A stretch of DNA of 64,000 nucleotides, from IMG/VR virus record IMGVR_UViG_3300037307_000190. One strand, given 5' to 3'. Positions 3,354-55,197 of this stretch are shown here, one piece after another. The notes under the pieces were generated by a model, which was given only the letters and a program-made list of their open reading frames with translations, was not told the origin of the DNA and made no database searches. A program made the position numbers and the translations under genes. Numbering within the stretch: the first letter of the stretch is position 1; the number at the start of each line of letters is the position of its first letter. Origin of the DNA: a virus.

Positions 3354-3355
3354 CA

Positions 3356-3702
3356 TGAGAAGCGCAATCGACGACATCGCATACGGCCTGCGCCGCAACT
3401 TGGGCGGAATGGTCGCCGGGCGCGAGCCCTATTACGGGCAACAGAACCGCTTCACGTTGAACGGCGTGCCGGGGCTGGATGCGGAAGAGGTGTCGCAACG
3501 AACAGGCTCTGCGCCGCTGCCGATCTCGAATGCGCCGGTAGCCCGGGGCTTGGAGAAGATGCGCCGTCGTGTGTCGATCACCGATCCGATGACCGAGCGC
3601 TTCGTCAATCAGTCGTCCGATCAGAATCCATTCTCGATGTCCGAGCGGAATGCGCTCATCGCGCCTTACGGGTATCGCATCGATCAACCTGTCGAGGAAT
3701 GA
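3356..3702 (+). CDS. hypothetical virion-module protein (115 aa)
   Basis: ATG 2 nt after the upstream TGA, preceded by GGGAAGGG. High GC3 and co-oriented with flanking structural genes. Confidence 0.65.
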
Positions 3703-3703
3703 C

Positions 3704-17400: not shown

Positions 17401-17608
17401 TCCGAAGATGGCGACCGCCAAGATGTTCCAGACGCAACAGCGGCGGTTCACAGAGTTGTCGAAGCGCATTCGCGTGGTGCGCGCCGATCGAGAAATGGAC
17501 GGCGACACGAAGCGCGATCGCCTCGACGAGTTGACCCAGCAGCGCAACATGCTGGCGAAGGTCGTCATGGAGCGAGCTGAGCGAGCCCAAGCACAAGCGC
17601 AGCGATGA
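5405..17608 (+). CDS. giant multidomain 'polyvalent' virion protein (4067 aa): MTase + SNF2-type helicase + HExxH peptidase-like + ART-like + PLxRFG-type C-terminal module
   Basis: Uninterrupted 12.2-kb ORF. Motifs read from the translation:
- EPTAGNAAL and LMNPPFG
- GDQTGIGKGR, FDESHNAGG and QMLGRVHRTGQ
- FHEVLGH
- VYHGT..GAGFFFGE..EWVAF
- GLMRFG
This domain mix matches DarB-like polyvalent proteins of phages and conjugative elements (recollection). Confidence 0.85.
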   Translation: MDDLDRLLAGPQSADPYDQLLAGPRGRAQPAPKAEPQPGFIPTVKRTGGQMLTSLARSIEDIGGPQAISQPIRQTGEAIVQSNPAGIGSLEQAAESPWLTVKEAVGQMVPQVGAAGVGATLGGIAGRAIGSRFGAGQLGEKAGRYVGGLSPIFVQEYGGVRDKQVAGGQEDKLRALGAAGISTGLEVLGPEAKVIKGLVGAPLKMGVKDVGIGALKQAGIETFTEGTQNVVGQIGAFEDPTTPQALDETALSALMGGIGGGVVGGALRGAESLMAPGEQEKAPAIEEPPPPQLPYAPDPLVVFPDGSVASKSEAEKIIRAREAAARPWMQPTAPLPEEGPLSKTVNRAVEQGVVSPDLAPAETMGGEDVARTTGAGQPQAAIGGGGPPTGRGGQAQPGGVPEPAAAAAQAPAPSAEAGGVQRGRPDKALTAPADWPVQYGKGVIKTVSALEKYRSDVVADITRLSNGPQKEARRETLARIDASIAQANEEYTNARTDVQGVRAPEGGGVPAERVAESVPPAGEVVPAPGQPVPATTGRAAKPEQQPAAQVVPAQVVEGANRPEQPAVATDVARVEGTQGVANEPVAQQAAVRQMPEGATVDEEARPAGAVVAPTAPATSAAGEAAFQPVAAGPVNRPDGGVTRVDEAANVAATSQTVGPSASAEASLPVQAQPNAAPPASVFESGGATVSQAGVPSEPEPAGAAPRQGKIGDKLAAGEVVLTASGRATTPFPKVSMGSNRATTNTVRSVDRWLLENAAAEAQARGDDFNARTFQADAQSKSMPPASKDAAEEYLFGQQPSVVPSILKPLSPSATPQAPAPAPETAQGAATPAGVAPTRAQFEGFDRVEVKTDAGWKQGVVKMAGSQEVTVRLDDGNDVTVPESNVVPVATALTPEAAPVSAAPLGESNAQEIGIQQGVGDPLGGDAARQAAEAAGGNRLLAAAGGAKVAGQVGIPATEGGAAQVGGPGAIGAGQAAPPIAAPTEGVQRGQVQEGRGQDATQALLSQEPPPQIPPAAAPTNIPTEKPKIVPSKNTIFTDEMRESARAVLRSKLRNINSGLDPEVVQAGITIAGYHIEKGARTFAAYAKAMVADLGHGIKPYLKSWYMAAKYDDRLSPFSKEMDDENTILSWRPSELKSPEGRNEVAKEVAAHFDAGNAFPTINEARTFVASLTGEKIEPGTQEAKLTDEAVENGVVLAARKIVAAGREQGQDDGAIFGRLVKLYDSQPNLGVRSSTSIREQAYSTPTPLAFITSRLANVKPTDRVGEPTAGNAALLVEVDPKNAVVNELNPDRADNLKQLGFSPSANDAATTDLATPKSLDVVLMNPPFGAVKDAEGNTKSYQLTENVRTNEVDQAIAWNSLKAMKDDGRAVLLLGGVDATDPEQIREGYRSRAKREFYWRLYNDYNVVDHFTVDGGLYSRQGAGYPVDVVVIRGRGKTQGRQLPAAQLPDRLTSWQQIKERADGLAQERNAGALLPGVRGPGAGVGAGPEGGGVASPVVGGPGVPGGGAGEQGARPAGGNVPSSEGAGNRPTGRPAGSGSNVRPVQPATEKRPVASGERPQPAVSGEGGARKPVGQAGTQGGRPSEVGGTRVVTGERVESGIGADRRGQETETATQVAYKPKSKVPSVGTLVPVNLRDPIQESLSRMEQEHGNLDTYVARELGIPLQDARDYFSAEQVDALAMAIHNANNGSGFIIGDQTGIGKGRVVAGMIRYAMKQGKVPLFVTEKPNLYGDMIRDLDDTGMTDVLKLDTRTPAIFITNEETIPYSLIRQIDGESVERALKLAPPARGKSLAAAMAEMRDKNSISPYKVIFTTYSQIQTQRGGATERMRFIQQLADGGFAIFDESHNAGGTTVTQPRTKEQRAAAKQGETTMGRAAFVRKLVSKAWGTLFSSATYAKRPDVMDLYSSTNMRLAVPKLADLADAITDGGVPMQQIVATMLAKDGQYIRRERTFAGVDYNTRAMTVDRETAENMAESMREILKFSRRMQTLLKQKQKYLDTEGVKVGTLEGGEKQTIQATNFGSVMHNLIDQMLLSLKAKDSVAFAIERLKAGEKVVLTVSNTMGSFIENFADENGLRNGDAMSLNFGDLYIRYLDKQRYYKVKTPGGATEERYIEDEEMSEKDLALYKETRAFIKGAGFGDAPVSPIDYMHQQLRAAGYKTDEITGRNVGVNYETEIPTLQSRNGSIKQRVDAIRGFNNGSVDALILNQSGATGLSLHASSKVQDKRMRHMIIVQPEKNIDTHVQMLGRVHRTGQVRVPAYTQAMADIPAEMRPAAVLLKKMASLNANTTASRKSAVTAEGVVDFMNDYGGQIAIEYLADNPDVHQSIGGNKVIAIPEDPNEANEDVIRKLTGYIPILPIATQEKVYADLAQRYNELIAREDAMGTNKLEARTLDLDAKTLGRESITENKRGDSIFAQPAYMERVDVKRTVKPMTNAEVDAAIAERLGDKTQQQFINDLYDTALKEKDAFIERRAAELTELGADATRIQLVKDNVNLQWGTVAAVLRTYPPGTRVTMTTSDGTINHGTVLDIQNARTTANPVAGSSWKLTLALVNADARVLQINVGQIGTRYNLNVTNVEIPVIMGTGGVEWVTVKELHDRGPNVRRERRYIVTGNILAGYSTYQGQIITYTKDDGTTGQGVLMSRLFNFEKVKARNIKFTSAAPLMQFLKESADAVVTTDGGLRVTKWNDQYVSFQTAPSKREGGRYFLDKRLTEILRTDFFTVSGKMVARVRGGDVEQIVRQALEYLITERDEAFTPRNNVEKAKSILGIGKVETPTIKAPELDFAPEGEKPSDLKAGARAPDLDIPPEGGGDVRFSRQATSPWYSDLARHVEKAAGGLPMFARGEAQAARVVEVQKLADSITSAWKDAPTIKVVESLRDEGVPEAIRKQDQKQTASGAAKGASAVFYKNTVYLVAGSLGTQRQVAEAVFHEVLGHYGLRATFGAQLNRILDNMARVNRAQIEAKAKEYGLDLSKEGDRRMAAEEVLADLAEKRPQSGWVKQAIAAIRTWLRENLPSVFGDMKMSDAELVRNYILPARRTVETGTPAKGEGRAAFQRAPIVTETPEFKKWFGDSKVVNADGKPLVVYHGTTADFDVFDLSWTEVSPRGNTAGAGFFFGESALEAEGYTWGARGPEGSIMPVYLSIKSPYVIGENKYDDPVWNRMVQSKSEAKRVREELVAQGYDGIRTALGEWVAFRPEQIKSATGNSGAFDPTNPDIRFSRRSTELPEWISSGPAALQSAARKFETFAPGKTIGEKFDQWKTGLLDRLIQGTIDAYLPLKRLDMDAYIQARMTKASDGALEGTLLYGKPVLDDDGGVRGILDGKGFLGLMQDLNGEHDRFLLWVAGNRAARLYSEGRENLLEPEEIKALQKLDKDVMTDGRQRAQVYEKTQREFAQFNKAVLDFAEKAGIVNGTDRDQWEAYFYVPFFRVSEDSTIEGPSVKVRGLVGQQGIKRLLGGKDNMGDPLQNTMMNWSHLLSASLANVAAGKALRAAQAQGVAEQTTEAEARIVAKASGFRDGAVYYMKDGQRQWYMVADNAVLSAITSLEPVGLKGPAFKLMQKAKYWLTLGATISPAFKIRNLLRDTVAAPGINQMSYNVLSNVIQGWKGTKKTSEHYQQMMFSGGLMRFGTLIEGERGLHAKRLIEAGIKDQTILDTPEKIKAATTKLWDTWQEFGDRMENVNRSALYDQLKKQGKSHREAAFLTRDLMDFSLHGSWAGMRILTQVVPFLNARIQGLYKLGRAYKDDRKRFATMTGAVALTSIALMLAYKDDDEWKQREDWDRDFYWWFKLDGVAYRIPKPFEIGALGTIAERTAELLVDDEMNGKRYAERLKQMALHTFSMNPVPQLFKPMVDLYANNDSFTGRPIETFAMEGRSKSERTGPSTTALAKFLGSAGDVTGVSPAQIDFVIGAYFGWLGMMTAAVVDTAVSPVSSVPAPAKRWDDWAMRFATELPEAQSRYVTNFYNSAKEAQGILADLRAAREERDMERIAELMADPKMATAKMFQTQQRRFTELSKRIRVVRADREMDGDTKRDRLDELTQQRNMLAKVVMERAERAQAQAQR
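6507..6692 (+). CDS. nested +1-frame small ORF (61 aa) inside a giant-ORF linker
   Basis: GGGAGGTG is followed by 4 nt and then the ATG. By hand count, 55/61 third positions are G/C in this frame against 22/62 in the host frame over the same stretch. The peptide MLPALQELVSLKLLSVEEAHQLDEV... has normal composition. Confidence 0.45.
   Translation: MLPALQELVSLKLLSVEEAHQLDEVAKRSPAEFLSLPLPLLKRLLQAQRLAAFNVADQTRH
6882..7145 (+). CDS. nested +1-frame small ORF (87 aa), Cys-rich N-terminus
   Basis: GAGGA lies 8 nt upstream of the ATG. The nested frame has high GC3 while the host frame turns A/T-ending. Peptide begins MQGLTCKACERPRVEECRLRGWPNLC... Confidence 0.4.
   Translation: MQGLTCKACERPRVEECRLRGWPNLCRLREKLFPHPDSPYPPLPDELLSPNSSPQRRSFLLKLWKGRIDPSNPQWQPTLPEWKVLKE
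7149..7355 (+). CDS. nested +1-frame small ORF (68 aa) with a CGKC motif, coupled to the preceding nested ORF
   Basis: AAGGAG precedes the ATG, which lies 3 nt after the TAG of ORF 6882..7145. MNPLHNKPPCGKCQKARLLMRKLGL resembles a redoxin-type N-terminus. High GC3. Confidence 0.4.
   Translation: MNPLHNKPPCGKCQKARLLMRKLGLPVPLLHQPPRQPALLAKPPSNPWLQGQSTGPMAESPESMKRPT
8127..8315 (+). CDS. nested +1-frame small basic ORF (62 aa)
   Basis: TAGGAG lies 6 nt upstream of the ATG. By hand count, 56/63 third positions are G/C against 35/63 in the host frame. MLKKSASNKALETLSAEMQPGKPQKQPAAIAYSQQRAAQ resembles small basic proteins with a KQA(I/V)AI..S.AR motif (recollection). Confidence 0.5.
   Translation: MLKKSASNKALETLSAEMQPGKPQKQPAAIAYSQQRAAQKSQGKSVSPPPKAAPRKSAGRGR
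8367..8417 (+). CDS. nested +1-frame micro-ORF (16 aa, MGKSKKGGGKTPPKPC)
   Basis: GAAGGAG lies 6 nt upstream of the GTG, in the same frame as 8127..8315 and 51 nt after its TAG. It may be the severed tail of that ORF. Confidence 0.25.
   Translation: MGKSKKGGGKTPPKPC
9120..9760 (+). other. N6-adenine DNA methyltransferase-like domain of the giant protein
   Basis: Motif I-like GEPTAGNAAL at about 9200-9226. Motif IV NPPF at 9377-9388, in frame with 5405. Confidence 0.7.
9792..10211 (+). CDS. nested +1-frame ORF (139 aa) inside the Gly/Pro-rich linker between the MTase and helicase domains
   Basis: AAGGAG lies 7 nt upstream of the ATG. Nearly every codon ends in G/C, while the host frame reads gga/ggt/gct/caa codons. 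The peptide MASRKNVTLVPFCPEYVDPELG... is globular-looking. Confidence 0.5.
   Translation: MASRKNVTLVPFCPEYVDPELGSVLVPKGEVSQAQWWEALAFRVAELVSKEHDPQAAMYQAARALGTGLPDDPQEAGAMFVLSNLQLKNALSHQANDHSLQFPAKAALGNPSAKQALKEVDLQRWVELASSQVSESSLE
10490..12175 (+). other. SNF2/DEAD-like helicase domain of the giant protein
   Basis: GDQTGIGKGR at about 10492-10521, DESH at 10937-10948 and QMLGRVHRTGQ at 12140-12172. All are in frame. Confidence 0.75.
14204..14221 (+). other. HExxH zinc-peptidase-like motif (HEVLGH) in the giant protein
   Basis: The triplets cac gaa gtc ctc ggg cac read directly, in frame. Confidence 0.6.
14660..15022 (+). other. ADP-ribosyltransferase-like (ART-PolyVal-type) module of the giant protein
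   Basis: PLVVYHGTTADFDVFDL ... GAGFFFGES ... YDGIRT ... GEWVAFRPEQIKS resembles the H-Y/S-E type ART pattern (recollection). Confidence 0.5.
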
Positions 17609-21456: not shown

Positions 21457-21923
21457 TCTGGATTGACCCCCGCTTATGGATGTCCTGCCTGCTGGCCGGC
21501 GCGTTGGCGTTCGGTGGCGGCTGGCTCAAGCGTGGATCATACGAGCACACGCAGCAACTCGCAGCCCGCGCCGAGGCCGAGGCCGAGGCGCGCAAGATCG
21601 AGGAACGCAGGAACGCACTAGCCCAACAGGAGGCCGACAATGCCCGCAAACAAGCTCAGGCCCGCGAGGCTGGTCTACGCGCCGATGCTGCTGGCGCTCG
21701 CTCTGAGCTTGACCGGCTGCGCGACACCCTCGCCGGCCTCCCCGTCGGCCCTGCCCCCGATCCCGGCGTGGCTCTTGGAGCCGCTACCGGAACAGCCGAG
21801 CTTTTCGGAGCTTGTGCAAACTCTCTTGTCCAACTGGCGGAAGACGCTGACGCCCAGCTCGCCGAGTGCCATGCCACAGTGCGCGGGCTGCAAGGGTGGG
21901 TGAGGGCGGCTACGGCGGACTAG
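21453..21923 (+). CDS. i-spanin (Rz-like, DUF2514-like), pair 2
   Basis: ATGA overlap with the upstream gene. N-terminal TM (LWMSCLLAGALAFGGGW), Ala/Glu/Arg coiled coil, and a C-terminal ELFGACANSLVQLAEDADAQLAECHATVRGLQGWV. Confidence 0.7.
   Translation: MIWIDPRLWMSCLLAGALAFGGGWLKRGSYEHTQQLAARAEAEAEARKIEERRNALAQQEADNARKQAQAREAGLRADAAGARSELDRLRDTLAGLPVGPAPDPGVALGAATGTAELFGACANSLVQLAEDADAQLAECHATVRGLQGWVRAATAD
21640..21903 (+). CDS. o-spanin (Rz1-like lipoprotein), pair 2, fully embedded
   Basis: AGGAGG then ATG. Lipobox LSLTGC. Pro-rich. Lies wholly inside 21453..21923 in another frame. Confidence 0.7.
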   Translation: MPANKLRPARLVYAPMLLALALSLTGCATPSPASPSALPPIPAWLLEPLPEQPSFSELVQTLLSNWRKTLTPSSPSAMPQCAGCKGG

Positions 21924-22198
21924 CCGCAAGTTCTGGTGCTTGCCATTGGCCGCACGGATGGTCGCACGTACTCCGCCCAGGCTCTATCTGCTCCCATGAT
22001 GCCAACGATGCGGCCGTCTATCTCGACGCCGTAGCTGCGGCAATGATGTCCAGTTGCCAGCAGACGCGCTCGCACGATCTGGCCGTGCAACGCATACTCG
22101 ATGTAGCCAACCTCGGTGCCGTGCGCTGGTAGATCGGCGCCGCCGCGTGGCTCACGCAACTCACGCTCGGCATCACGTCTGGCTCGCTGCGCCAACAT
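21920..22198 (-). CDS. hypothetical protein (92 aa), last gene of the leftward operon
   Basis: Internal ATG (M54) of track ORF 21920..22357. Its stop overlaps the stop of the convergent + gene (CTAG). Confidence 0.45.
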   Translation of the reverse strand: MLAQRARRDAERELREPRGGADLPAHGTEVGYIEYALHGQIVRARLLATGHHCRSYGVEIDGRIVGIMGADRAWAEYVRPSVRPMASTRTCG

Positions 22199-22224
22199 GC
22201 GGCGGGATGGTTTATCTTTGCAAA

Positions 22225-22503
22225 TCACTGGCGATCCGTATAACTCACGTTGGGCGGCTTGCGCACCACCACGGCCGGGCGCGGCGAAGCGCAGTCGCAA
22301 GTGGCAAGGTCCATCGCGCACGCCTCGCAGACGTTCGGTTCCGGCAACGCGCGCCAATCCTCATCGCCCAGGCGCTCCGAGAAGTCGTCGGGGCGGTAGT
22401 CATATCGCGTCCACGTCTTCCACGGGTGCAGCAGCGCGGAGTGGTGGCCCCATACGCCGCCGCGCCAGCGGCGATACCAGCGGAAATGCACAAGCAGGTT
22501 CAT
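22225..22503 (-). CDS. hypothetical protein (92 aa)
   Basis: M15 of the track ORF. ATGA overlap with the upstream gene's stop at 22500. Confidence 0.5.
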   Translation of the reverse strand: MNLLVHFRWYRRWRGGVWGHHSALLHPWKTWTRYDYRPDDFSERLGDEDWRALPEPNVCEACAMDLATCDCASPRPAVVVRKPPNVSYTDRQ

Positions 22504-22754
22504 CGGTTCCAGTCCTCCACGCAGTCGCCGCACAGCAGCTTGCATTCCGCGCTGGTGCGCGGGTCGTCGCGGTGCGGGCCGCAGTTCATCGTGCAGAGCT
22601 TCGTGCTCGGGTCAAAGGCGGCCAGCGCTGCTGGGTCGGCGCGCGGCCATTGAATCGGAGCGCACAGTGCATCGCGCTTCGGAACCAGCCGCCCAACCCC
22701 TCGCTCAACCTGACCCAAAGGGGCAGGCTGCACCTGTGCTTCGTCATGCTTCAT
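22500..22754 (-). CDS. hypothetical Cys-rich protein (84 aa); the N-terminus lies inside attC-like element L
   Basis: High GC3 from about codon 23 onward. C-terminal CTMNCGPH...CKLLCGDC. Confidence 0.5.
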   Translation of the reverse strand: MKHDEAQVQPAPLGQVERGVGRLVPKRDALCAPIQWPRADPAALAAFDPSTKLCTMNCGPHRDDPRTSAECKLLCGDCVEDWNR

Positions 22755-22792
22755 CTGCTGCCCCTTTGGTCAGGTTAGCTCGAACGTTAGGC
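22691..22792 (+). repeat. attC-like imperfect palindrome L (102 nt)
   Basis: GCCCAAC CCCTC GCT[C]AACCTGACC[C]AAAGGGGCAG[G]C ... GCTGCCCCTTTGGTCAGGTTAGC TCGAAC GTTAGGC. Spacers are 5 and 6 nt, with extra bases in the 5' arm. Confidence 0.7.
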
Positions 22793-23169
22793 GCTAGCGC
22801 TTCCATCGCGTCCATTGCTTCGTCTATTTCTTCCCACCAGCCGTGTTGCGCCCACAGCCCGAGTCCGTCGCACTCCCATTCTTCTGCTTCTGCGCGCAGC
22901 GTTTGATAGGCTTGCGCCACCTTGCGCAGCGCTTGCAACTCCGCTTCTTGTGTGTTTACCGTGCGCGCTAGCACGTCGCGTATCTTCTCGACCTCGCCTA
23001 GATCGTCCGCCAGTTTCTTGCGCCAGCGGTGGTGGTCGTCGCGCTCTTTGGCAATGACATCAACTTCGCGCCATGCAAGCGAGGCTTCCTGCAGCAGAGT
23101 CTCGCGCTCGTCCATGAGGCGGTCGTATTCGTCGCCGCTCAGGCGCACTACGTCAGCGGCGCGGCTCAC
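22744..23169 (-). CDS. hypothetical coiled-coil protein (141 aa)
   Basis: GTG start with GGAGGA upstream and a GTGA overlap with the upstream stop. The last 14 codons run into attC-like element L. Confidence 0.6.
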   Translation of the reverse strand: MSRAADVVRLSGDEYDRLMDERETLLQEASLAWREVDVIAKERDDHHRWRKKLADDLGEVEKIRDVLARTVNTQEAELQALRKVAQAYQTLRAEAEEWECDGLGLWAQHGWWEEIDEAMDAMEALAPNVRANLTKGAADEA

Positions 23170-23504
23170 GCTCTGTCCTCCGCGTCAACCTGTGCCAGCG
23201 CGTCCATGACGGCCTGAACTCGGTCATCGCGCGCCGAGATCGTGCCGTGATAGCCAAGCGGCGCCATCATGGCGTCAACGGCCTGCCGCAGTACGCGATA
23301 GGCGCGAAGCGCTTGCTGCACCTCAACTACGCGCTCCTGCCATGCAATCGCGTTTGATGGCACAAGCGCACCAAGTCTGCGCACTTCCACCACCAGATCG
23401 CGGATCACCGCGAGATAGCCGTACTCATCAGTCATGTTGATGCCGCGTTTGTCCGCCTCATCAAGCCACGTCTGCGCGCGGTTAAGTAAGTCATTTACCG
23501 CCAT
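23166..23504 (-). CDS. hypothetical protein (112 aa)
   Basis: The ATG (MAVNDLLNRAQ...) overlaps the TAA of the small TM ORF. Upstream of it, the track frame has low GC3. Confidence 0.55.
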   Translation of the reverse strand: MAVNDLLNRAQTWLDEADKRGINMTDEYGYLAVIRDLVVEVRRLGALVPSNAIAWQERVVEVQQALRAYRVLRQAVDAMMAPLGYHGTISARDDRVQAVMDALAQVDAEDRA

Positions 23505-23629
23505 GTAGTCAACCTCCCCGTCGCCCACTGCCAGAGGAACCATAGGCCGATCGCAAGCGCCGCAATGCCCACAACGATCAGCGGTAACGCCAGCAACCAC
23601 AGAACCCACAACGGTATGCTCAAGGTCAT
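23495..23629 (-). CDS. small membrane protein (44 aa)
   Basis: Hand translation gives MTLSIPLWVLWLLALPLIVVGIAALAIGLWFLWQWATGRLTTWR. GAGGTGA upstream. GC3 is higher than in the overlapping track frame. Confidence 0.5.
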   Translation of the reverse strand: MTLSIPLWVLWLLALPLIVVGIAALAIGLWFLWQWATGRLTTWR

Positions 23630-23714
23630 ACGTCACCTCATCACTTTGCACGCGCGAAGCGCGCGCCCATGTTTCCAGGCGCGCTCTCGCGGTAAATCGC
23701 TTCGCCACCATCGT

Positions 23715-23770
23715 GCCTAACACGTCATTCGATCCGACCGCCTCGCGGCGGCTCAATTCCCACGTTAGGC
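23715..23770 (+). repeat. attC-like imperfect palindrome A (56 nt)
   Basis: GCCTAAC ACGTC ATTCGATCCGACCGCC TCGC GGCGGCTCAAT TCCCAC GTTAGGC. It aligns along its whole length with the aadA1 59-be as I remember it. Confidence 0.75.
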
Positions 23771-24003
23771 ACCGGCAACCGCCTGCCTTCTCTTTGCTCA
23801 ATCTTCCGCACGGCATCAGCCCATGCTTCCGCCTCCGTCCTGCCAAGGCCAAATAGTCCACGCCTAAATGTTTCAGGCCAGTGCTCGTCGTTCAGTCGTT
23901 TTCGTTCGTCGTGGCTTATGTCCCACACGCTCCATTCGCCAGTACTTTCCTGCTCTGCGCTTGCGTGCGGGTAGCGGCTGCGTACCTTGCCTTGGTTCGT
24001 CAT
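23725..24003 (-). CDS. hypothetical protein (92 aa)
   Basis: AGGAGGG upstream of the ATG. The last 13 codons lie in attC-like element A. Confidence 0.6.
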   Translation of the reverse strand: MTNQGKVRSRYPHASAEQESTGEWSVWDISHDERKRLNDEHWPETFRRGLFGLGRTEAEAWADAVRKIEQREGRRLPVPNVGIEPPRGGRIE

Positions 24004-24019
24004 CTTCTCGCCCTCCTGT

Positions 24020-24079
24020 GCCTAACATTTCATTCAACCCGGACGCTCTACGAGCGTCCGGTTAATTCAAGCGTTAGGC
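24020..24079 (+). repeat. attC-like imperfect palindrome B (60 nt)
   Basis: GCCTAAC ATTTC ATT[C]AACC[C]GGACGCTC TAC GAGCGTCCGGTTAAT TCAAGC GTTAGGC. The 6-nt spacer TCAAGC is identical to that of the remembered aadA1 attC. Confidence 0.8.
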
Positions 24080-24304
24080 CCGTTCAAGCTGTGCAATCGC
24101 CGCATTCAGTTCATCGGCCCACGCGGCGTGTTCGCGGCTGGCTGTCGCATCAACCAATTGCCTAGCCTTACGCAGCGCAACCAGTGCAACATCCCGCGCA
24201 TCATCGCGCTCACGTTCTCGCCGCTGCGCCTCCCTGCCGTGCGCTGGGCAATCTGGGTCTTCGGCGATAAATGGCCCGCCAATCTTGTAGCACTCGCACA
24301 TCAT
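24074..24304 (-). CDS. hypothetical protein (76 aa)
   Basis: GGAGAGAG upstream. The TAA stop is the complement of TTA in the GTTAGGC box of element B. Confidence 0.6.
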   Translation of the reverse strand: MMCECYKIGGPFIAEDPDCPAHGREAQRRERERDDARDVALVALRKARQLVDATASREHAAWADELNAAIAQLERA

Positions 24305-24323
24305 CTCTCTCCGGTTACAACGA

Positions 24324-24384
24324 GCCTAACCCGTCATTCTTAGACCTGCGGATCTCCGAAAAATCTTCGCGCTGGGTGTTGACA
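24324..24384 (+). repeat. attC-like element C, left arm canonical and right arm divergent
   Basis: GCCTAAC CCGTC ATTCTTAGACC... ends at GTTGACA, whose TTGACA is the -35 box of the consensus promoter. Confidence 0.4.
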
Positions 24385-24407
24385 GGCTGCGCCTCGTGGC
24401 GTATAAT
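24379..24407 (+). promoter_or_regulatory. perfect consensus sigma70-type promoter (TTGACA-17 nt-TATAAT)
   Basis: TTGACA at 24379-24384 and TATAAT at 24402-24407, with a 17-nt spacer counted by hand. It faces the two + strand genes. Confidence 0.8.
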
Positions 24408-24461
24408 TGCGTCATCGCATCGGCACAGGGCCGAAGCGCAAACGGCAGAAAGGCCACGATC

Positions 24462-24680
24462 ATGAGCAAGTCCCAATCCCTCGAAACCAGCAACATCGCT
24501 GCCAGCGCCATCCGCCAAGCGCTCCGCCGCGAGTTCGGCGCCCGCCAGTACCGCATCACGCGCGACGGCGAAATTTACGTCTACGGCCCGATGACCAACG
24601 CCACGCACATCATCGGCTGGCGCCTGTACGGTCACGTCAGCGACCAGCAAACGCTGTGCAACCTCGGCTTGGACGCATGA
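24462..24680 (+). CDS. hypothetical protein (72 aa), first gene of a rightward 2-gene module
   Basis: M23 of track ORF 24396..24680, 54 nt downstream of the consensus promoter. Confidence 0.6.
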   Translation: MSKSQSLETSNIAASAIRQALRREFGARQYRITRDGEIYVYGPMTNATHIIGWRLYGHVSDQQTLCNLGLDA

Positions 24681-24895
24681 GCCGGCTACTACATGAGTGC
24701 GGCGAGGCTCTGTATGGGCCTCGCTGGCAGTCCGAATTGGCGCGTGACCTTGATGTAAGCATCCGCACCATGCAACGCTGGGCTGCCGGCACCACAGACG
24801 TGCCGGTCGGTCTGTACGTTGACCTACTGCGCCTGACGCAAGAGCGCGCCGCGGTGCTCGACGAACTCGCTCCACGGCTTCGCAAGGCGCCATAA
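24677..24895 (+). CDS. small HTH DNA-binding protein (72 aa, XRE/Cro-like)
   Basis: ATGA overlap with the upstream gene. ELARDLDVSIRTMQRWAAG is a helix-turn-helix pattern. The TAA stop lies in the first box of attC-like element N. Confidence 0.65.
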   Translation: MSRLLHECGEALYGPRWQSELARDLDVSIRTMQRWAAGTTDVPVGLYVDLLRLTQERAAVLDELAPRLRKAP

Positions 24896-24989
24896 CACGC
24901 CCATCGAGCTGACCCACGCCGGCAAGCAGCGTGTCGCGCGTCGGTTGCATCGTATCGGCCGGCATGTTCAGCTCATGGGCACGTTAAAA
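24890..24989 (+). repeat. attC-like imperfect palindrome N (100 nt), degenerate boxes
   Basis: CCATAAC ACGCC CAT[C]GAGCTGA... ...TTCAGCTCATG GGCAC GTTAAAA. The arms pair with an extra C in the 5' arm. Confidence 0.55.
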
Positions 24990-25186
24990 CTCATTGCGGC
25001 ACCGTCACCAACCATCTGCCCGAGCTTCCAATCGCCAATGTTCGCGCCAAAGAAAAAGTGTCTCGGTGGCGGTGGCCAGCAGCCTTTCTGCATCATCAAT
25101 GCAACGCTGTAGCTGCACAGCAGCTTCCCGTCTTGCCAGCATTCGCGGCACATCGTCGCCGGGTTGTCGTAGGTGCAAACGGCCAT
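24968..25186 (-). CDS. hypothetical Cys-containing protein (72 aa)
   Basis: Track ORF. The ATG lies 4 nt from the TTCTAAC box of element D. Confidence 0.5.
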   Translation of the reverse strand: MAVCTYDNPATMCRECWQDGKLLCSYSVALMMQKGCWPPPPRHFFFGANIGDWKLGQMVGDGAAMSFNVPMS

Positions 25187-25189
25187 GAG

Positions 25190-25261
25190 TTCTAACCCTG
25201 CGTTCCATGCGCGACAGTCCGAAGCTGCGCTTCGTCCTGCGGCCTGAACTCCACGTTAGGC
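25190..25261 (+). repeat. attC-like imperfect palindrome D (72 nt)
   Basis: TTCTAAC CCTGC GTTCCATGCGCG ... GCGGCCTGAAC TCCAC GTTAGGC. Confidence 0.55.
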
Positions 25262-25564
25262 GTCGGGGTCATCCGGGCACGCCATCCAGTAGCGCGGCTG
25301 GTGCAGCCAGTAGCCGTCCCACGTAAGGTGCCACCCCTCGGAGCCGCTGCCGCGTTTGTCGTCGGCCGCGAGCCACCGCGCTGCGTGCGGGATGTCGCTG
25401 CCGTCCATCAGCACAAGGATCGCAGTGCCGTCTTTTGGCGCGCTGCGCATGCCTTGCCACGGCCGAGCGGTTGCGCACGCTTGCGCGAACCGCCGCACCG
25501 CAGGAGTCAGCGTGCCGCCGCATCCGGTCTGCGTCATCAGCCTGTGAATCTGCGTGTCGTCCAT
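25256..25564 (-). CDS. hypothetical protein (102 aa), possibly DUF551-like
   Basis: M12 of the track ORF, with GGAGAGGAA upstream. The TAA stop is the complement of TTA in the GTTAGGC box of element D. Confidence 0.55.
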   Translation of the reverse strand: MDDTQIHRLMTQTGCGGTLTPAVRRFAQACATARPWQGMRSAPKDGTAILVLMDGSDIPHAARWLAADDKRGSGSEGWHLTWDGYWLHQPRYWMACPDDPDA

Positions 25565-25588
25565 CGTTTCCTCTCCGTTCACCGCGCC

Positions 25589-25661
25589 GCCTAACACGGC
25601 GCTGCAAGGGACCTCCTACGGCGCTGCGCGCCTTCGTCGGCCCCTGCGCTATGCGTTAGAG
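25589..25661 (+). repeat. attC-like imperfect palindrome E (73 nt)
   Basis: GCCTAAC ACGGC GC[T]GCA[A]GGG[A]CC ... GGCCCCTGCGC TATGC GTTAGAG. Confidence 0.6.
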
Positions 25662-26083
25662 CGCAGCAATTCGTGCCCGCGCCGCCATATCTCAATTTTC
25701 ATGCCGCCGCGCGCATCCAGTTTCTTGGCCTGCGCCTTCGTGACTGTCTGCGCAATTCGCCGGCAGTCCATCTCGTGGCACTGCTGCGGCTTGTCGGCTT
25801 GGCGAGTGCACCCGCCGTCGCCCAGATACACGCAATCGCCGTTCGGTTTGTGGGCCAGCATCAGCGCGCCGGCCATGTATGGGTGCGGCTCGGTATGCCA
25901 GCGGCTCGCGTCCTCGTGCGGCAGTATCCGCACCGCATCATTGTGGCAACAGGCCGTGCAGCCGTTGCATGGCACGGCGTAGAAGCCCATCGCCATTCGC
26001 ACTTGGTGCAGAGTGCGGCTGCGCTCTAACTCTGCGTTCGAGCGGACCTCCAACGGCCCGGCGAGTTCAGTGCCCATCATCAC
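25649..26083 (-). CDS. YkgJ-family CxxCxxCC zinc/iron-chelating domain protein
   Basis: CNGCTACC motif near the N-terminus and further Cys residues downstream. GGGAAGGTG upstream. The first ~29 codons lie in element F (alternative start M30 at 25996). Confidence 0.65.
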   Translation of the reverse strand: MMMGTELAGPLEVRSNAELERSRTLHQVRMAMGFYAVPCNGCTACCHNDAVRILPHEDASRWHTEPHPYMAGALMLAHKPNGDCVYLGDGGCTRQADKPQQCHEMDCRRIAQTVTKAQAKKLDARGGMKIEIWRRGHELLRSNA

Positions 26084-26125
26084 CTTCCCTGCGGGCCGTT
26101 TGGTCCGCTCACCTCTGCGTTAGAC
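26024..26125 (+). repeat. attC-like imperfect palindrome F (102 nt)
   Basis: CTCTAAC TCTGC GTT[C]GAGCGGACC[TCC]AACGGCCCG ... CGGGCCGTTTGGTCCGCTCAC CTCTGC GTTAGAC. Confidence 0.7.
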
Positions 26126-26311
26126 ATCTAGTTCGTCCAGCTTCTTTGCCGTGTCGATTGCAAACCCGGCAGCGATCAAAGCGGCCTTGAAAGCCTCGAT
26201 CATGTGGTCGAGCCCACCGTCGCCTGAAAGCGAAACCATTGCATGCTGCTTACTTCCGTGTGGGTAAGTCCCGCTGATCGTGATTTCAACCATGTGCGTC
26301 AGTTCGTCCAT
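26120..26311 (-). CDS. hypothetical protein (63 aa)
   Basis: GGAG upstream. The TAA stop is the complement of TTA in the GTTAGAC box of element F. Confidence 0.55.
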   Translation of the reverse strand: MDELTHMVEITISGTYPHGSKQHAMVSLSGDGGLDHMIEAFKAALIAAGFAIDTAKKLDELDV

Positions 26312-26324
26312 CTCAATACTCCAT

Positions 26325-26387
26325 GCCTAACATTTGCGTCAACGCGTACGCTTCGCAAGCTCAGCGCCGGTTACGCCAGCGCTAGGC
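26325..26387 (+). repeat. attC-like imperfect palindrome G (63 nt)
   Basis: GCCTAAC ATTTG CGT[C]AACGCGTACGC ... GCGCCGGTTACGC CAGC GCTAGGC. Confidence 0.6.
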
Positions 26388-26591
26388 CTTACGCGGGCGC
26401 CTGAAAACCCACCACTGCTGCGGCGTCTCTTTGCCGTGCCAGTGAGTCGCGCCGTAGCTGACGAACTCCCATCCCTGTGCGTCCATGTCGTTCAGCCACC
26501 ATTCCATTTGCCCGTAGTCCATCATGTGGCTCGTGGCATCTGGCGGCAGCATCGGTCGCGTCACCCGGTATTCGAACTTCGCCATTGTCAT
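26382..26591 (-). CDS. DUF4177-like small protein (67-69 aa)
   Basis: The FEYRV....LNDMDAQGWEFVS....VFRRP pattern matches the family (recollection). The TAG stop occupies positions 2-4 of the GCTAGGC box of element G. Confidence 0.6.
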   Translation of the reverse strand: MTMAKFEYRVTRPMLPPDATSHMMDYGQMEWWLNDMDAQGWEFVSYGATHWHGKETPQQWWVFRRPRKA

Positions 26592-27007
26592 CCTTTCCGG
26601 CCATCAGGCCTAACAGGTCGCTCAGCCAGCAGCCGCTGCTCGTCGCGTGCCGCTGGGCGCAACTCAGCTCGAACGTTGGCGCTTTCACGCTCCGGCCTGC
26701 ACTCGTGCGCGTGACACACGCCGCATAGGAACCAAGGGTCGCCCAGCGGGCCGTTATGCGTGAACTGCCACTTGTGGCCGATCCTGCCGCAAGCATCGCG
26801 CATGTCCTTCAGGTTTGGGCAGTAGTAGCTCTGGTCGAAGTCACGCATCAGCTCGCGCATAACGTCCCGGCGCTCCTTCTCAATGCCGCGCACGGCGTTG
26901 GCAATCTCGCTGTGCGTTGCCAACTCGCGCGCATCCACCACGCGCCTAACACGCCGGTCGAGCCGACATTCGTCGGCGGCCGGCATCGTCCTGCTTTGGT
27001 CACTCAT
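26588..27007 (-). CDS. hypothetical Cys/His-rich protein (139 aa); the start lies in element I and the tail reads through element H
   Basis: AAGGAGG upstream of the ATG. GC3 drops over the last ~30 codons. Confidence 0.55.
   Translation of the reverse strand: MSDQSRTMPAADECRLDRRVRRVVDARELATHSEIANAVRGIEKERRDVMRELMRDFDQSYYCPNLKDMRDACGRIGHKWQFTHNGPLGDPWFLCGVCHAHECRPERESANVRAELRPAARDEQRLLAERPVRPDGRKG
26608..26681 (+). repeat. attC-like imperfect palindrome H (74 nt)
   Basis: GCCTAAC AGGTC GCTCAGCCAGC ... CAACTCAGC TCGAAC GTTGGCG. Its right end matches element L except for one missing A in the last box. Confidence 0.55.
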
Positions 27008-27042
27008 CAGCGCCTCCTTGTCGGCTCACCAGCACGTTAGGC
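26943..27042 (+). repeat. attC-like imperfect palindrome I (100 nt)
   Basis: GCCTAAC ACGCC GGT[C]GAGCCGACA ... TGTCGGCTCACC AGCAC GTTAGGC. Confidence 0.7.
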
Positions 27043-27059
27043 GTCACAAATCCAACCGG

Positions 27060-27167
27060 TCAATTTCGCAACCTTGCCACAGTCAGCACGTCATTCGCGG
27101 GGTTCACTTTGTGGTCGGTCAGTTCACGCATTTGCGCTCCAAGGTTGTGCCGCCGCGTGTCACTCAT
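27060..27167 (-). CDS. micro-ORF (35 aa) overlapping the end of the upstream gene
   Basis: Hand translation gives MSDTRRHNLGAQMRELTDHKVNPANDVLTVARLRN. The ATG lies inside TATGAGTGA at the end of 27160..27531. Confidence 0.3.
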   Translation of the reverse strand: MSDTRRHNLGAQMRELTDHKVNPANDVLTVARLRN

Positions 27168-27531
27168 ACAGACCCCCAATCGTCTTCTCTACCACCTTGG
27201 CGGCCGCCGGGTCATGCTTGGCCTGTGATCGCAGCATCTGGTGCGTCAGCTTCACCCACATTTCCTCGACCTCTCTATAGACCTCGTCGTCGTGCTTCGC
27301 GAACATCCGGCGCTGGTCGTGCTGCGTATGGCACCCAGCCTTGCCGACTCGATCCACGCACAACGGGAACGCTTGACGATCATCGGCCTTCACGCCCTTT
27401 CCTTTACCGGTGTTGGCGTGCGCGTGGTTCGAGTAGCCGTGAACACCGCATGAGACACACGGCAGCGCGGCCACCAGCCGTCGGTAGGGCTCGCTGCGCA
27501 CGGGCTTGATCTTCGGGAAGCTGGGCATCAT
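27160..27531 (-). CDS. Zn-finger/HNH-like prophage protein (DUF968-like)
   Basis: YRRLVAALPCVSCG...HAHANTGKGKGVKADDRQAFPLC...CHTQHD. Family assignment is from memory. Confidence 0.5.
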   Translation of the reverse strand: MMPSFPKIKPVRSEPYRRLVAALPCVSCGVHGYSNHAHANTGKGKGVKADDRQAFPLCVDRVGKAGCHTQHDQRRMFAKHDDEVYREVEEMWVKLTHQMLRSQAKHDPAAAKVVEKTIGGLYE

Positions 27532-27572
27532 CGAGCGGATCTAGGCTGCATTGTTTCTCGCCAAAAGTTGAT

Positions 27573-27669
27573 GCCTAACGTAGCCGTGGCGGTTGGTTCT
27601 CTGTTCTCTTCGCCAAGCCTCAAGCCTTGCCCGAAGCTGGGCTTCCGTTGCGCCTCTCATCCGTTCCAT
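27573..27669 (+). repeat. possible partial attC-like element J
   Basis: GCCTAAC GTAGC... is present, but I could not find a convincing partner box (GTTGCGC or GTTCCAT) or good arm pairing. Confidence 0.3.
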
Positions 27670-28465: not shown

Positions 28466-28499
28466 TGCGAGGATACGACGAGGTCAACCATTGTGTCAA
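28466..28499 (-). promoter_or_regulatory. candidate leftward promoter (TTGACA-18 nt-TATCCT)
   Basis: The minus strand reads TTGACAcaatggttgacctcgtcgTATCCT about 50 nt upstream of the 28416 start. Coordinates are approximate. Confidence 0.35.
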
Positions 28500-28854
28500 A
28501 TCGTCATTACGCGCGGCGGCGACGAAATTCAGCGGCGCGACGTGCCCGTGCTGGCGCGACGACCACGTCCACACATAGACTGATGAGTCACCCAACCGCG
28601 CAACGCGGGGATCAAATACACCCATCTTAGATACAGGGGTGAAGCTGCCCGCTGGTGGGAAGACCCAGCCCTCCCTGCGGGGGGATGAACCTTCACGAAC
28701 TGCCCGCCGGAGCCGCTCGACCCGGAAGCCTTTCGTCGGTAGGGCGCTTCCTTCGCCACCCCGTTGCCCTGTCTCGCCGACTGTCCCCCAGTAGGGCTAT
28801 CGTGTTGCCGGCGCTGGTGCCAAGAGCGCGTCCACCGGCAGCATCAAAGCCGGG

Positions 28855-48191: not shown

Positions 48192-48433
48192 CACTTCCCC
48201 CTTTCGGCCGGGCAGTGGGCGATCTGCTGGTGCTTGTCGCATTCGCCGTGTGCGTGGGTCGTGAGCGCCGCGACGGTCAGACCCATCAGCGCGGCGATGC
48301 GCAGCATGGTGAGCCGGCGCATGGCGTCGATGGCCGTGGCGGCTTGTGCCGTGCGCGGCTGCGCGCGGTTCAGTGCCGCGAGCTGTGTGCGGTGCGCCGC
48401 AATGGCGCTGCGAGTGGTGTAGTGCATTTTCAT
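48191..48433 (-). CDS. hypothetical protein (78-80 aa) with an internal hydrophobic segment
   Basis: Track ORF and first gene of the leftward island. Segment LTMLRIAALMGLTVAALTTHAHG. Confidence 0.45.
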   Translation of the reverse strand: MKMHYTTRSAIAAHRTQLAALNRAQPRTAQAATAIDAMRRLTMLRIAALMGLTVAALTTHAHGECDKHQQIAHCPAERGK

Positions 48434-48579
48434 CCTCGTGTGGGTTACGTCCTAGAATTGGCGTTCCGGTGCGCTGTCGCGCGCTGCGAGCGTATGACGC
48501 AAAAGGGCGCACGTCAAGGCTTCCGCGCGATTTTGCGTAATACCAACATAGGGACTTACCCGTGTGACGTAAAGGCAAC

Positions 48580-52020: not shown

Positions 52021-52028
52021 GAGTTCGC

Positions 52029-55023: not shown

Positions 55024-55197
55024 CCACGCGGCCCGCCGGGTGCCTCAACCCGGCCGGTCTTCCCCCGCAGGGATGTCATCGCCAAGCTCAGGCGTTAAAG
55101 GAGCCGGTCTCTTCGATCCGCAATCGATGTCATCGCGGCTTGGGCGGCGCACTGCCCGGAAACAGTGTTCATCCACTTTTTTCGGAAGGAAGCCGTC

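Follow-up and report, generated by a model that had tools for sequence, protein, structure and literature searches.

Small leftward open reading frames (ORFs) of a phage are separated by imperfect palindromes, and the question raised by this locus is whether these palindromes are integron attC sites (59-be) and, if so, how such an array could work in a phage genome. The window, the whole stretch of 64,000 nucleotides that was analysed, is IMG/VR record IMGVR_UViG_3300037307_000190. A cluster of attC sites lacking an integron integrase is termed a CALIN (Cury et al. 2016, PMC4889954), and the original prediction had proposed a CALIN-like array carried by a phage.

The motif GCCTAAC occurs eight times on the + strand (23715, 24020, 24324, 25589, 26325, 26608, 26944, and 27573) and its complement GTTAGGC five times (22786, 23764, 24073, 25255, and 27036), in agreement with the counts and positions given previously except for one coordinate, which is 26944 and not 26943. 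The total of 13 compares with 2.85 +/- 1.8 expected for the whole 64 kb (reached in 0 of 100 shuffles), and all 13 copies in the window are confined to 22.79-27.58 kb (4.8 kb).

The covariance-model check that had been proposed for these elements was run with models trained only on 11 independent, validated attCs from outside the window: eight from class 1 arrays of plasmid NZ_CP020493.1 and three phage attCs from the IntI1 recombination assay set of Qi et al. (Table S3). With the R2 model, the elements C, A, B, J, G, and F, in descending order of score, matched at E = 1e-6 to 2e-3, where the E-values are rough because the models are our own and not that of IntegronFinder, and the elements I, E, and H gave three weak matches. 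Every match in the array was full length and on the + strand, and a single other match (E = 2.7) was seen in 128 kb of searched strand. In the controls, every training site was recovered, and neither the flanking DNA of the plasmid (~33 kb) nor DNA from related phages (~37 kb) gave any match at E <= 1. An independent log-odds profile, with a null maximum per 64 kb of 12.8 +/- 2.9, ranked the elements in the same order, and the attC polarity was unambiguous, with profile scores of 30-50 on the + strand versus 4-14 on the minus strand at the same sites.

The predicted palindromes also hold as structures. When folded as single-stranded DNA, the elements A, B, C, D2, G, and J each form one long hairpin (z = -3.5 to -6.8), E folds more weakly, and F, H, and I fold no better than shuffled sequences. 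The geometry is that of attC, with 7-bp R boxes, a variable loop, and, much as originally described, asymmetric arms: the spacers are 5 and 5-6 nt long, and 3 bp into the L stem there is one bulged base, a C in 14 of the 15 sites aligned. Across 15 phage sites, 89.7% of cells were paired and compensatory changes were present at 10 of the 16 pairs; this covariation score was reached by none of 500 shuffles, and slid controls were 23-44% paired. In an ungapped alignment, element C agrees with the assay-validated attC_aadA7 at 43 of 60 positions, and the aadA1 attC sequence used for the original alignment is confirmed by a 100% match in plasmid R100. The L'' box type GTTCGAGCGGAC is also found in bacterial integrons beside true IntI genes, including one Burkholderiaceae MAG. 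The sequence, structure, and covariance-model scores support the assignment of the window elements to the integron attC family, as a subtype close to aadA-type attCs. As in bacterial attCs and CALINs, RYYYAAC/GTTRRRY boxes, unpaired 5/5-6-nt spacers, and an L stem with an extrahelical base are combined in sites of 56-102 nt, which lie on the same strand at the cassette-sized spacing noted earlier (250-930 bp) in an integrase-free vicinity.

Table 1. Coordinates of the array elements, ORFs, and promoter-like sites (bits and E, covariance models R1 and R2; profile, log-odds score; z, folding score).
Feature	Coordinates	Strand	Remarks
attC A	22691..22792	+	102 nt; R2 35.0 bits, E 4.5e-6; profile 42.5; z -4.96
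attC A loop			contains stop of 134-aa ORF and start of 84-aa ORF
attC B	23715..23770	+	56 nt; R2 33.8 bits, E 9.2e-6; R1 30.3 bits; z -3.46; entered for 15 codons by upstream 92-aa ORF
attC C	24020..24079	+	60 nt, best site; R2 37.5 bits, E 1.1e-6; R1 36.9; z -6.79; TAA of R' box is stop codon of 76-aa ORF
D, collapsed attC remnant (half site)	24324..24345	+	read from sequence; no covariance-model match
attC D2	24890..24989	+	100 nt; profile 14.5, within noise; z -4.20, one long hairpin
attC E, weak	25190..25261	+	72 nt; R2 13.9 bits, E 0.84; profile 20.8; z -2.0; stop of 102-aa ORF inside R' box
attC F	25589..25661	+	73 nt; R2 24.2 bits, E 2.3e-3; profile 30.7; z -0.9
attC G	26024..26125	+	102 nt; R2 25.0 bits, E 1.4e-3; z -3.9; R' box holds 63-aa ORF stop; loop holds RBS and start of 143-aa ORF
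H, degenerate attC	26325..26387	+	R2 11.1 bits, E 4.2; fold not significant; R' box GCTAGGC still gives TAG stop of 67-aa ORF
I, doubtful remnant	26608..26681	+	R2 15.7 bits, E 0.3; z +0.86; within 3' end of 139-aa ORF
attC J	26944..27042	+	99 nt; R2 31.3 bits, E 3.9e-5; z -4.14; loop holds AGGAGG RBS and start of 139-aa ORF
K, R'' box only (GCCTAAC)	27573..27656	+	exact box; weak fold; no convincing partner; no covariance-model match
HNH/DUF968	27531-27160	-	
139-aa ORF	27007-26588	-	
67-aa ORF	26585-26382	-	
63-aa ORF	26311-26120	-	
143-aa ORF	26080-25649	-	CxxCxxCC
102-aa ORF	25564-25256	-	
72-aa ORF (leftward)	25186-24968	-	
76-aa ORF	24304-24074	-	
92-aa ORF	24003-23725	-	
44-aa ORF	23629-23495	-	
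125-aa ORF	23543-23166	-	
134-aa ORF	23148-22744	-	
84-aa ORF	22754-22500	-	
92-aa ORF	22503-22225	-	
92-aa ORF	22198-21920	-	
Sole canonical-orientation cassette	24340..24983	+	two ORFs and own promoter
Sigma-70 promoter of + strand cassette	24379-24407	+	12/12 consensus positions
72-aa ORF of + strand cassette	24462-24680	+	source gene calls
71-aa HTH (YdaS/Cro-like) ORF	24680-24895	+	weak YdaS match; stop TAA in D2 R'' box
Promoter-like site, TTGACA-18 nt-TATCCT	28470..28499	-	consensus scan, 10/12 positions

Eleven elements had been listed. Six of them are statistically solid; three or four are degenerate, and the sites at 24324 (D) and 27573 (K) are half sites and not full attCs. The element D consists of GCCTAAC CCGTC ATTC fused to TTAGAC, and this TTAGAC would belong to the next cassette as its 5' end. 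K, between NinB and the HNH gene, marks the end of the array that is upstream with respect to transcription. D2, absent from the earlier list, is an additional element that ends the two + strand ORFs; its boxes are degenerate (CCATAAC / GTTAAAA) and its L stem is good (CAT[C]GAGCTGA). The end of attC G was corrected to 26125. For attC A, the top strand is the + strand and the recombinogenic bottom strand is the - strand.

The degenerate or truncated state of D, K, H, I, and D2, the invasion of several sites by ORFs, and the missing integrase are as expected if the attCs are a dead relic, decaying and functionless after descent from an integron-bearing ancestor. This explanation is highly improbable, because six sites keep the full geometry and high scores, the R' boxes are maintained even when they double as stop codons, and dozens of viral contigs keep the same architecture, with compensatory changes.

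The phage assembly closes into a 64,779-bp circle, giving a complete genome of 64.8 kb. No tyrosine recombinase or integrase was found in the window, as had been stated, or in the closed genome, and the same-strand attC cluster in this circle is therefore a CALIN in a phage. Since no recombinase is encoded, phage activity at the attCs would need a helper, and recombination of the array would depend on an integrase supplied in trans. Unlike bacterial CALINs, the array resides in the leftward early operon of a complete phage genome of the virulent type. The five metagenome contigs of the phage are mutually 100% identical; no polymorphic variants were found among them, and no recent gain or loss of cassettes is documented.

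The original prediction knew of no described precedent, but Qi et al. 2023 (PMC9892861) described phage genomes with 17 CALINs and three complete integrons, and five of the six phage attCs tested were recombined by IntI1. Like the CALINs of that report, such as those of Tetrasphaera phage TJE1 and Pseudoalteromonas phage PH101, the array is an attC cluster without an integrase, and the methyltransferase genes flanked by attCs in the related phage L017 resemble the DNA methyltransferase cassettes reported there. Unlike those CALINs, which hold 2-4 sites, the window holds six solid sites and 3-5 degenerate ones, and its attCs are antisense to the genes, whereas those of TJE1 are sense. Phage CALINs are already known; the antisense multi-site type in GC-rich IMG/VR contigs is absent from the PMC9892861 report.

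The leftward cassette ORFs, which span 21920..27531 on the - strand according to the gene calls of identical metagenome contigs and the negative GC skew, are mostly orphans in Pfam and PHROGs. They lie on the attC bottom strand, so that all cassettes but one run opposite to the canonical integron arrangement, which went unnoticed in the earlier description. Bacterial cassettes scored in the same way were sense in 48 of 54 cases and antisense in six, and, given this opposite polarity, the window cassettes would be silent in a standard integron. At least 52 loci in GC-rich IMG/VR contigs hold three or more sites of the present type, and of the sites in the 52 surveyed loci, 181 were antisense versus 24 sense, compared with 16 antisense and 37 sense in bacterial arrays. 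These results indicate that the reversed orientation is systematic among the sampled viral arrays. It is the most unusual feature of the array, and it alters how the cassettes could be exchanged and expressed. In two viral contigs, L229 and L222, bona fide integron integrases adjoin antisense arrays (TIGR02249, 428 and 360 bits, respectively; cut-off 265), and in L229 the attCs have the canonical divergent polarity with respect to intI and attI.

Along the direction of transcription, the mobile unit is [C + attC body + GTTAGGC + RBS + ORF + ...GCCTAA]. In each unit the attC lies before the ORF, which is therefore encoded on the bottom strand of the attC, in mirror image to the cassettes of bacteria. 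The ORF often terminates at the TAA of the following R' box, and the loops of the long sites, unlike those of bacterial attCs, carry its RBS and start codon. The translation starts in the loops of A, G, and J, the stops in the R' boxes, the presence of hairpins at almost all intergenic junctions of a single operon, and the consistent orientation relative to transcription would be expected if the hairpins acted mainly as RNA in the early transcript (processing, stability, or translation control) and their likeness to attC were ancestral or coincidental. We consider this quite improbable, because a model trained solely on DNA recombination sites matches at E = 1e-6, element C closely resembles attC_aadA7, and the polarity in L229 is exactly that of recombination; in addition, U tracts or a terminator signature are lacking (4 terminator-like sites versus 10.1 expected), and the conservation of the R boxes would be left unexplained. 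The hairpins could nevertheless serve both as RNA and in recombination.

Comparison with other phage contigs bears on whether the units have moved. The window and L016 share 90.5% nucleotide identity from 26121, in the R' box of G, through attC G into the 143-aa gene, to 25766, and the regions flanking this match are unrelated. Thus attC G accompanies the 143-aa gene in L016, whereas in L017 and L005 the gene is present alone, without attCs. With L014, homology extends ~7 nt beyond the R' box of F and no further, and the attC that follows differs. For a second family, the 102-aa ORF, the comparison yielded no clean cassette pair. These alignments partly show cassette-level mosaicism in which the breakpoints lie at R' boxes, as cassette units would predict.

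Such breakpoints could alternatively arise from homologous recombination inside the conserved boxes, since their resolution cannot tell an A|C crossover from recombination elsewhere in the box. The attC-descended elements would then be linker or boundary sequences that drive the reshuffling of modules, by homologous or single-strand-annealing recombination of similar copies through the phage's own ERF/YqaJ-type system with no integron integrase. The phage, which has no integrase, does encode ERF and a YqaJ-like exonuclease, as do its relatives L014, L017, and L278, and near-identical copies of the G type are repeated inside L016 (78-90% identity) and across phages. However, homologous recombination needs no R boxes, fixed spacers, fixed bulge, or compensatory changes, and these stem-keeping features suggest a folded structure recognised by a protein. 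The window sites are also too unlike each other for efficient homologous exchange, and the same kind of array adjoins the true IntI genes of L229 and L222, so we regard this explanation as unlikely. The 'mobile regulatory cassettes' of T4-type phages (PeSLs), ascribed to Arbiol, Comeau and Krisch in 2010, reportedly pair an early promoter with a stem-loop and undergo homologous recombination. The present array is similar in its repeated stem-loops flanking small early ORFs, its hyperplastic phage region, and its proposed modular shuffling, whereas its elements carry integron R/L boxes and, in a consensus scan, no promoter motifs.

Taken jointly, an attC CALIN in a phage with mirror-image cassettes, read-through expression, and an integrase acting in trans is the probable reading. 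Each site gives the canonical attC hairpin when single-stranded: the R''/R' stem is followed by the 5/5-6-nt spacer, which stays unpaired, then by the L''/L' stem with its extrahelical base and by the variable loop. An integron integrase, from the host or from a co-resident phage or prophage like L229 and L222, would bind the folded bottom strands and exchange strands at A|C of GCCTAA|C. We infer that a host integrase could in this way shuffle the cassettes, excising and inserting them and swapping them among phages and perhaps also with integrons of bacteria. The promoter-like site near 28.5 kb precedes a 54-aa ORF, NinB, and the array; leftward transcription probably originates there and would drive the ORFs by read-through.

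The lone + strand module, whose ORFs match PHROG 12690/3626, looks like a captured ordinary bacterial-type cassette. Sedentary chromosomal integrons contain promoter-bearing, oppositely oriented cassettes, for example toxin-antitoxin cassettes. Like these, the module has its own perfect sigma-70 promoter and is transcribed in the opposite direction while sharing the common attC polarity, but the roles are swapped: in the window, the promoter-bearing cassette is the canonical one and the promoterless majority is inverted.

Elements between 22691 and 27656 carry the boxes, spacers and bulge that define attC sites. The boxes GCCTAAC and GTTAGGC together occur 13 times, compared with 2.85 copies expected in the whole window, and all 13 lie within 22786-27579, in line with the original prediction. 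The imperfect palindromes described between the small ORFs do exist, and the aadA1 attC sequence given in the original prediction proved exact (100% match in plasmid R100). In addition, element C and attC_aadA7, the latter taken from the assay oligonucleotides of Qi et al. (PMC9892861), are identical at 43 of 60 positions without a gap. In an attC site, the outer box R'' (RYYYAAC) pairs with R' (GTTRRRY) with AAC/GTT invariant, and in 15 phage sites the AAC/GTT pairs were invariant while the outer pairs covaried. Between the R boxes and the inner boxes L'' and L' lie unpaired spacers, 5 nt long on the 5' side and 5-6 nt long on the 3' side; nine sites aligned to the covariance model over its full length, and the spacers could be read off the sequence. 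The polarity of an attC site is given by a base of the L'' arm that stays outside the helix, a C in the top strand and a G in the bottom one, and the aligned sites have one bulge after 3 bp of the L stem, with C in 14 of 15. Across these 15 sites, drawn from five phage sources, 89.7% of the cells were paired and compensatory changes were seen in 10 of 16 pairs; neither shuffles nor slid registers came near the observed pairing. The folding of the elements as single-stranded DNA bore out the predicted hairpins only in part: A, B, C, D2, G and J formed single long hairpins (z -3.5 to -6.8), E was marginal, and F, H and I folded no better than shuffles.

The attC assignment was also supported by covariance models, which were custom-built (R1 and R2) and do not correspond to the model or threshold of IntegronFinder; six sites reached E values of 1e-6 to 2e-3. 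The training set consisted of 11 attCs independent of the window: eight from class 1 arrays of plasmid NZ_CP020493.1 (aadA1, aadA2, psp, qacL, cmlA1, dfrA1, estX and aadA7-type) and three from phages (two from TJE1, one from PH101), listed in Table S3 of Qi et al. among the sites tested in an IntI1 assay (PMC9892861). Because MAFFT misaligned the L' boxes of full-length attCs, a hybrid of trimmed and full-length sites was used for the alignment. The trimmed-loop model R1 sees sites only up to ~61 nt and was therefore replaced by R2, in which long loops are allowed. Searched with filters off against both strands of the window, R2 gave nine matches in the array, all full-model and all on the + strand, and one further window match with an E value of 2.7. 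All of the training sites were recovered, and neither the remainder of the plasmid loci nor two loci of related phages contained a match at E<=1. An independent log-odds profile ranked the sites as R2 did (C 50.2, A 42.5, B 41.2, G 34.4, F 30.7, J 30.6, E 20.8), with an empirical null maximum per 64 kb of 12.8 +/- 2.9 (largest 20.3).

Features of the array, of the phage genome and of the compared contigs (positions refer to the window unless a contig is named; bits and E values are those of R2)
Feature	Position (strand)	Bits	E	Remark
Element A	(+)	35.0	4.5e-6	
Element B	(+)	33.8	9.2e-6	
Element C	24020-24079 (+)	37.5	1.1e-6	
Element D	24324 (+)			collapsed remnant
Element E	(+)	13.9	0.84	
Element F	(+)	24.2	2.3e-3	
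Element G	(+)	25.0	1.4e-3	
Element H	(+)	11.1	4.2	
Element I	(+)	15.7	0.3	
Element J	(+)	31.3	3.9e-5	
Element K	27573 (+)			R'' box only
Terminator-like site	27581-27595			inside degenerate half-site K
Two-ORF module	24340-24983 (+)			ORFs 24462-24895
143-aa protein gene	25649-26080 (-)			between F and G
Segment shared with L016	26121 to 25766			90.5%; begins in R' box of G, spans attC G and part of gene; upstream unrelated
Segment shared with L014	26057 to 25648			88%; stops ~7 nt beyond R' box of F; next attC different
Segment shared with L017	26010 to 25655			79%; inter-attC segment only; compact operon without attCs
Segment shared with L005	25987 to 25652			74%; inter-attC segment only; compact operon without attCs
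Promoter-like site	28499-28470			precedes NinB and array
RF02932 RNA	28720-28842 (-)			89.1 bits (Rfam), gathering score 49.4
Polyvalent protein	5405-17608 (+)			4067 aa
1815-aa ORF	37542-42989 (+)			
AAA+ ATPase	46644-48587 (-)			647 aa
Portal protein	51963-54104			
Major head protein	55165-56304			
G-type attCs of L016	L016: 8522-8624, 9539-9640, 9951-10054			~100 nt each
Integrase locus L229	IMGVR_UViG_3300042939_000785: 698-4169			phage-like contig
Integrase locus L222	IMGVR_UViG_3300002461_000823: 9633-12081			phage-like contig
Bridge between window ends	L275: 8567-9345			Logan contig

Repeats of this kind could instead belong to a REP or intrinsic terminator family, or have arisen by chance. 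An intrinsic terminator is a GC-rich hairpin followed by a T run; only four terminator-like sites were found in 13.5 kb, compared with 10.1 expected, and none coincides with a solid element, although one falls in the half-site K. The box counts, the profile null and the terminator scan thus reject both families as well as chance. Rfam 15, which has no attC family, gave no match inside the array, its sole match in the window (RF02932) lying outside, and a literature search on the box sequences returned nothing relevant.

These results indicate that the array is a genuine attC array, and a CALIN in a phage. A CALIN is defined as two or more same-strand attC sites that are spaced by less than 4 kb and have no integron integrase close by; here, six to nine same-strand sites span 4.4 kb, and the closed 64,779-bp genome encodes neither IntI nor another tyrosine recombinase, as had been predicted from the window. 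Pfam and PHROG scans of every ORF of at least 250 aa detected no integrase; in tblastn, IntI1 and three further IntI/integrase queries yielded only noise (E >= 0.24). The array is thus not a complete integron, which would have intI and an adjacent attI. The original prediction knew of no precedent, a claim that fails because phage CALINs were described by Qi et al. (2023; PMC9892861), who also reported that other phage attCs were recombined by IntI1. The kind of array is therefore already described; new with respect to the literature found are the size of the array, the inverted polarity of its ORFs, and the occurrence of this polarity as a rule in many GC-rich viral contigs, including IntI-bearing ones.

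A canonical cassette has its ORF on the top strand of the attC and the attC at the 3' end of the ORF, which is transcribed by Pc at attI. In the array, the ORFs lie on the bottom strand throughout, except in one module. In class 1 arrays the model matches the gene-encoding strand, whereas in the window it matches the + strand and the ORFs are on the - strand; the attCs of phage TJE1 are sense as in class 1, unlike those of the window. The ORF strand was assigned from the gene calls of identical contigs, GC skew and the positions of the RBSs. The polarity call is firm, because in the profile these sites score 30-50 on the + strand and no more than 4-14 on the - strand. Along the direction of transcription, each unit has the order attC, RBS, ORF. 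The attC loop of the long sites (A, G and J) contains the RBS and the start codon, and at C, E, G and H the upstream ORF stops at the TAA or TAG within the R' box that follows. No mention of reversed ORF polarity was found in the literature.

The sole + strand exception is a two-ORF module, which encodes a 72-aa product without assigned function and a 71-aa Cro/YdaS-like HTH protein. Its promoter, TTGACA-17-TATAAT, is perfect, and its transcription opposes that of the phage operon; the module is bounded by TTAGAC at its start and attC D2 at its end, with its stop codon in the R'' box of D2. The module is a canonical-orientation cassette with its own promoter, and may represent a bacterial-type cassette with a toxin-antitoxin-like or regulatory role.

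The antisense arrangement was also seen in other viral contigs. R2 detected attC-type sites in L001 and in each of L014-L018, in every case antisense to the called genes, which in L017 include Pfam-supported methyltransferases. A scan of IMG/VR, whose contigs may include some non-viral DNA, with the pattern GCCTAAC-N7-TCRA-N25-55-GTTAGGC gave at least 120 loci; among the 120 listed, 69 had at least two and 52 at least three profile-positive sites, and genes in sampled loci encode phage helicases, a DNA polymerase, a RecE-like exonuclease, methyltransferases and a tape-measure-like protein. A scan of IMG/VR with a G-type pattern gave 14 loci, only a few of them with arrays. Bacterial arrays for comparison came from GTDB genomes scanned with the G-type L'' box pattern. 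Among the viral loci listed, the GC3-based strand of neighbouring genes was antisense in 181 cases and sense in 24 (47 of 52 loci mostly antisense), compared with 16 antisense and 37 sense in bacteria (Fisher p 1.7e-16). An SD, a start and at least 45 open codons directly after the site were present on the bottom strand only in 139 and on the top strand only in 12 cases among the viral loci listed, compared with 1 bottom and 16 top in bacteria (Fisher p 5e-14), and an interval-based test scored the bacterial arrays as 48 sense and 6 antisense. Gene-strand assignments of this sort are crude, and a low-GC class 1 control was mis-scored by them; the viral-bacterial contrast is large, and the hand-checked loci agree with it.

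Two phage-like contigs with such arrays carry an integron integrase. For L229, the integrase is 57% identical to IntI1 and scores 428 bits with TIGR02249 (cut-off 265); for L222, it scores 360 bits, and a convergent ordinary phage integrase is additionally present. In both contigs, intI and the attC top strands diverge, as in any integron, which independently validates the polarity call. The cassette ORFs of both head towards intI, co-directional with it and antisense to the attCs, and in L229 the last ORF has its stop in an attI-like GTTAGGC 43 nt upstream of the intI start. In a bacterial control, the Burkholderiaceae MAG L050, the cassette is in the usual sense orientation, and its L'' box type is common to the phage sites. 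The recombinase beside the L261 array was considered as an IntI and rejected, being a generic tyrosine recombinase.

A tentative but serious possibility is that phage-borne cassettes form a distinct, mirror-image class, in which the ORF is antisense to the attC, so that the arrays would be transcribed towards attI/intI as the tail of a phage operon and not away from it by Pc. If so, there would be a separate phage cassette pool that could be stored but not expressed in bacterial integrons, and the reverse would also hold; IntI, where present, would be expressed on phage timing; and the window would be an integrase-less member dependent on a helper IntI. The bottom strand, which is the recombinogenic one, would then be on the non-template, lagging-template side, and the arrays might be recombinationally 'hot'. 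For the window, the folded bottom strands, here the coding strand, would be recombined by an IntI that acts in trans and comes from the host or from a co-resident phage, and the cassettes would be expressed by read-through from the promoter-like site. As to why the polarity is reversed, we can only speculate that arrays extend a phage operon at its 3' end, intI being the last gene, or that the placement of the bottom strand on the non-template, lagging-template side is itself the cause.

Cassette-like modularity was seen for the gene between F and G. Its 143-aa CxxCxxCC product, putatively zinc- or iron-chelating, has at least 270 homologues, nearly all metagenomic, and those whose contexts were examined (L005, L014-L017) lie in phage early operons with or without attC flanks. 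Nucleotide comparison of this region with four contigs showed the same ORF with an attC in L016 and without attCs in L017 and L005, the kind of pairing that the original prediction proposed to look for. The breakpoints are those predicted if each cassette is delimited at the crossover box and its attC belongs to the ORF that follows; at this resolution, homologous exchange inside the conserved boxes may also account for them. L016 also has three paralogous G-type attCs, 78-90% identical to element G, which resemble the homogeneous attCs of sedentary chromosomal integrons. For a second family (102-aa ORF), the homologues lie in compact operons without clear attC flanks and gave no clean cassette case; one contig of this family (L276) has only a low-scoring antisense site, read by eye.

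Integrons are regarded as bacterial devices, and the origin of cassettes and attC sites is a standing question. Here, many small early genes of one complete phage genome are kept as attC-bounded units, an attC-ORF unit of the window recurs in another phage with its breakpoint at the recombination box, and dozens of viral contigs have an attC-bounded architecture, some with true integron integrases. Phages are therefore plausible as a major reservoir and exchange route of cassettes. Such units would provide phages with an integron-like means to shuffle accessory genes, which may include counter-defence genes, and the reversed polarity would affect ORF calling in cassette surveys.

The window belongs to a tailed phage, and its products also include a primase, a helicase, a NinB-like protein and an HNH/DUF968 protein. 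A Logan contig bridges the right and left ends of the window, with 779 nt between them that fall within a 1449-aa structural ORF. At 64,779 bp, the genome is therefore either closed into a circle or circularly permuted, and these 779 nt are all that the window lacks; a 64,906-nt contig with an identical cassette protein is consistent with this size. Two Logan sequencing runs and three JGI metagenomes together yielded five contigs that match the window at 100% identity, and as they are all of the contigs with the 92-aa cassette ORF, there was no cassette polymorphism to analyse. Megablast of 20-32 kb found no close relative among INPHARED phages, and a NinB metagenome scan found no relatives. 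Among isolates, Acidovorax phage AP1 is the nearest, with a portal of 53% identity, and no attC-like site was found in it. The RF02932 match, a full-length Betaproteobacteria-1 RNA, is located between the primase gene and the promoter-like site, and hints at a betaproteobacterial host, with which it is compatible.

Elsewhere in the genome, the polyvalent protein combines a Strawberry-notch-like helicase (AAA_34/Helicase_C_4), an ADP-ribosyltransferase (ART-PolyVal) and an LPD38 domain, the domain set of the Pfam 'polyvalent protein' families. The 1815-aa ORF, without a Pfam match, lies in the most GC-rich stretch (~70% GC), and the AAA+ ATPase (AAA and AAA_lid_3) has otherwise unannotated neighbours.
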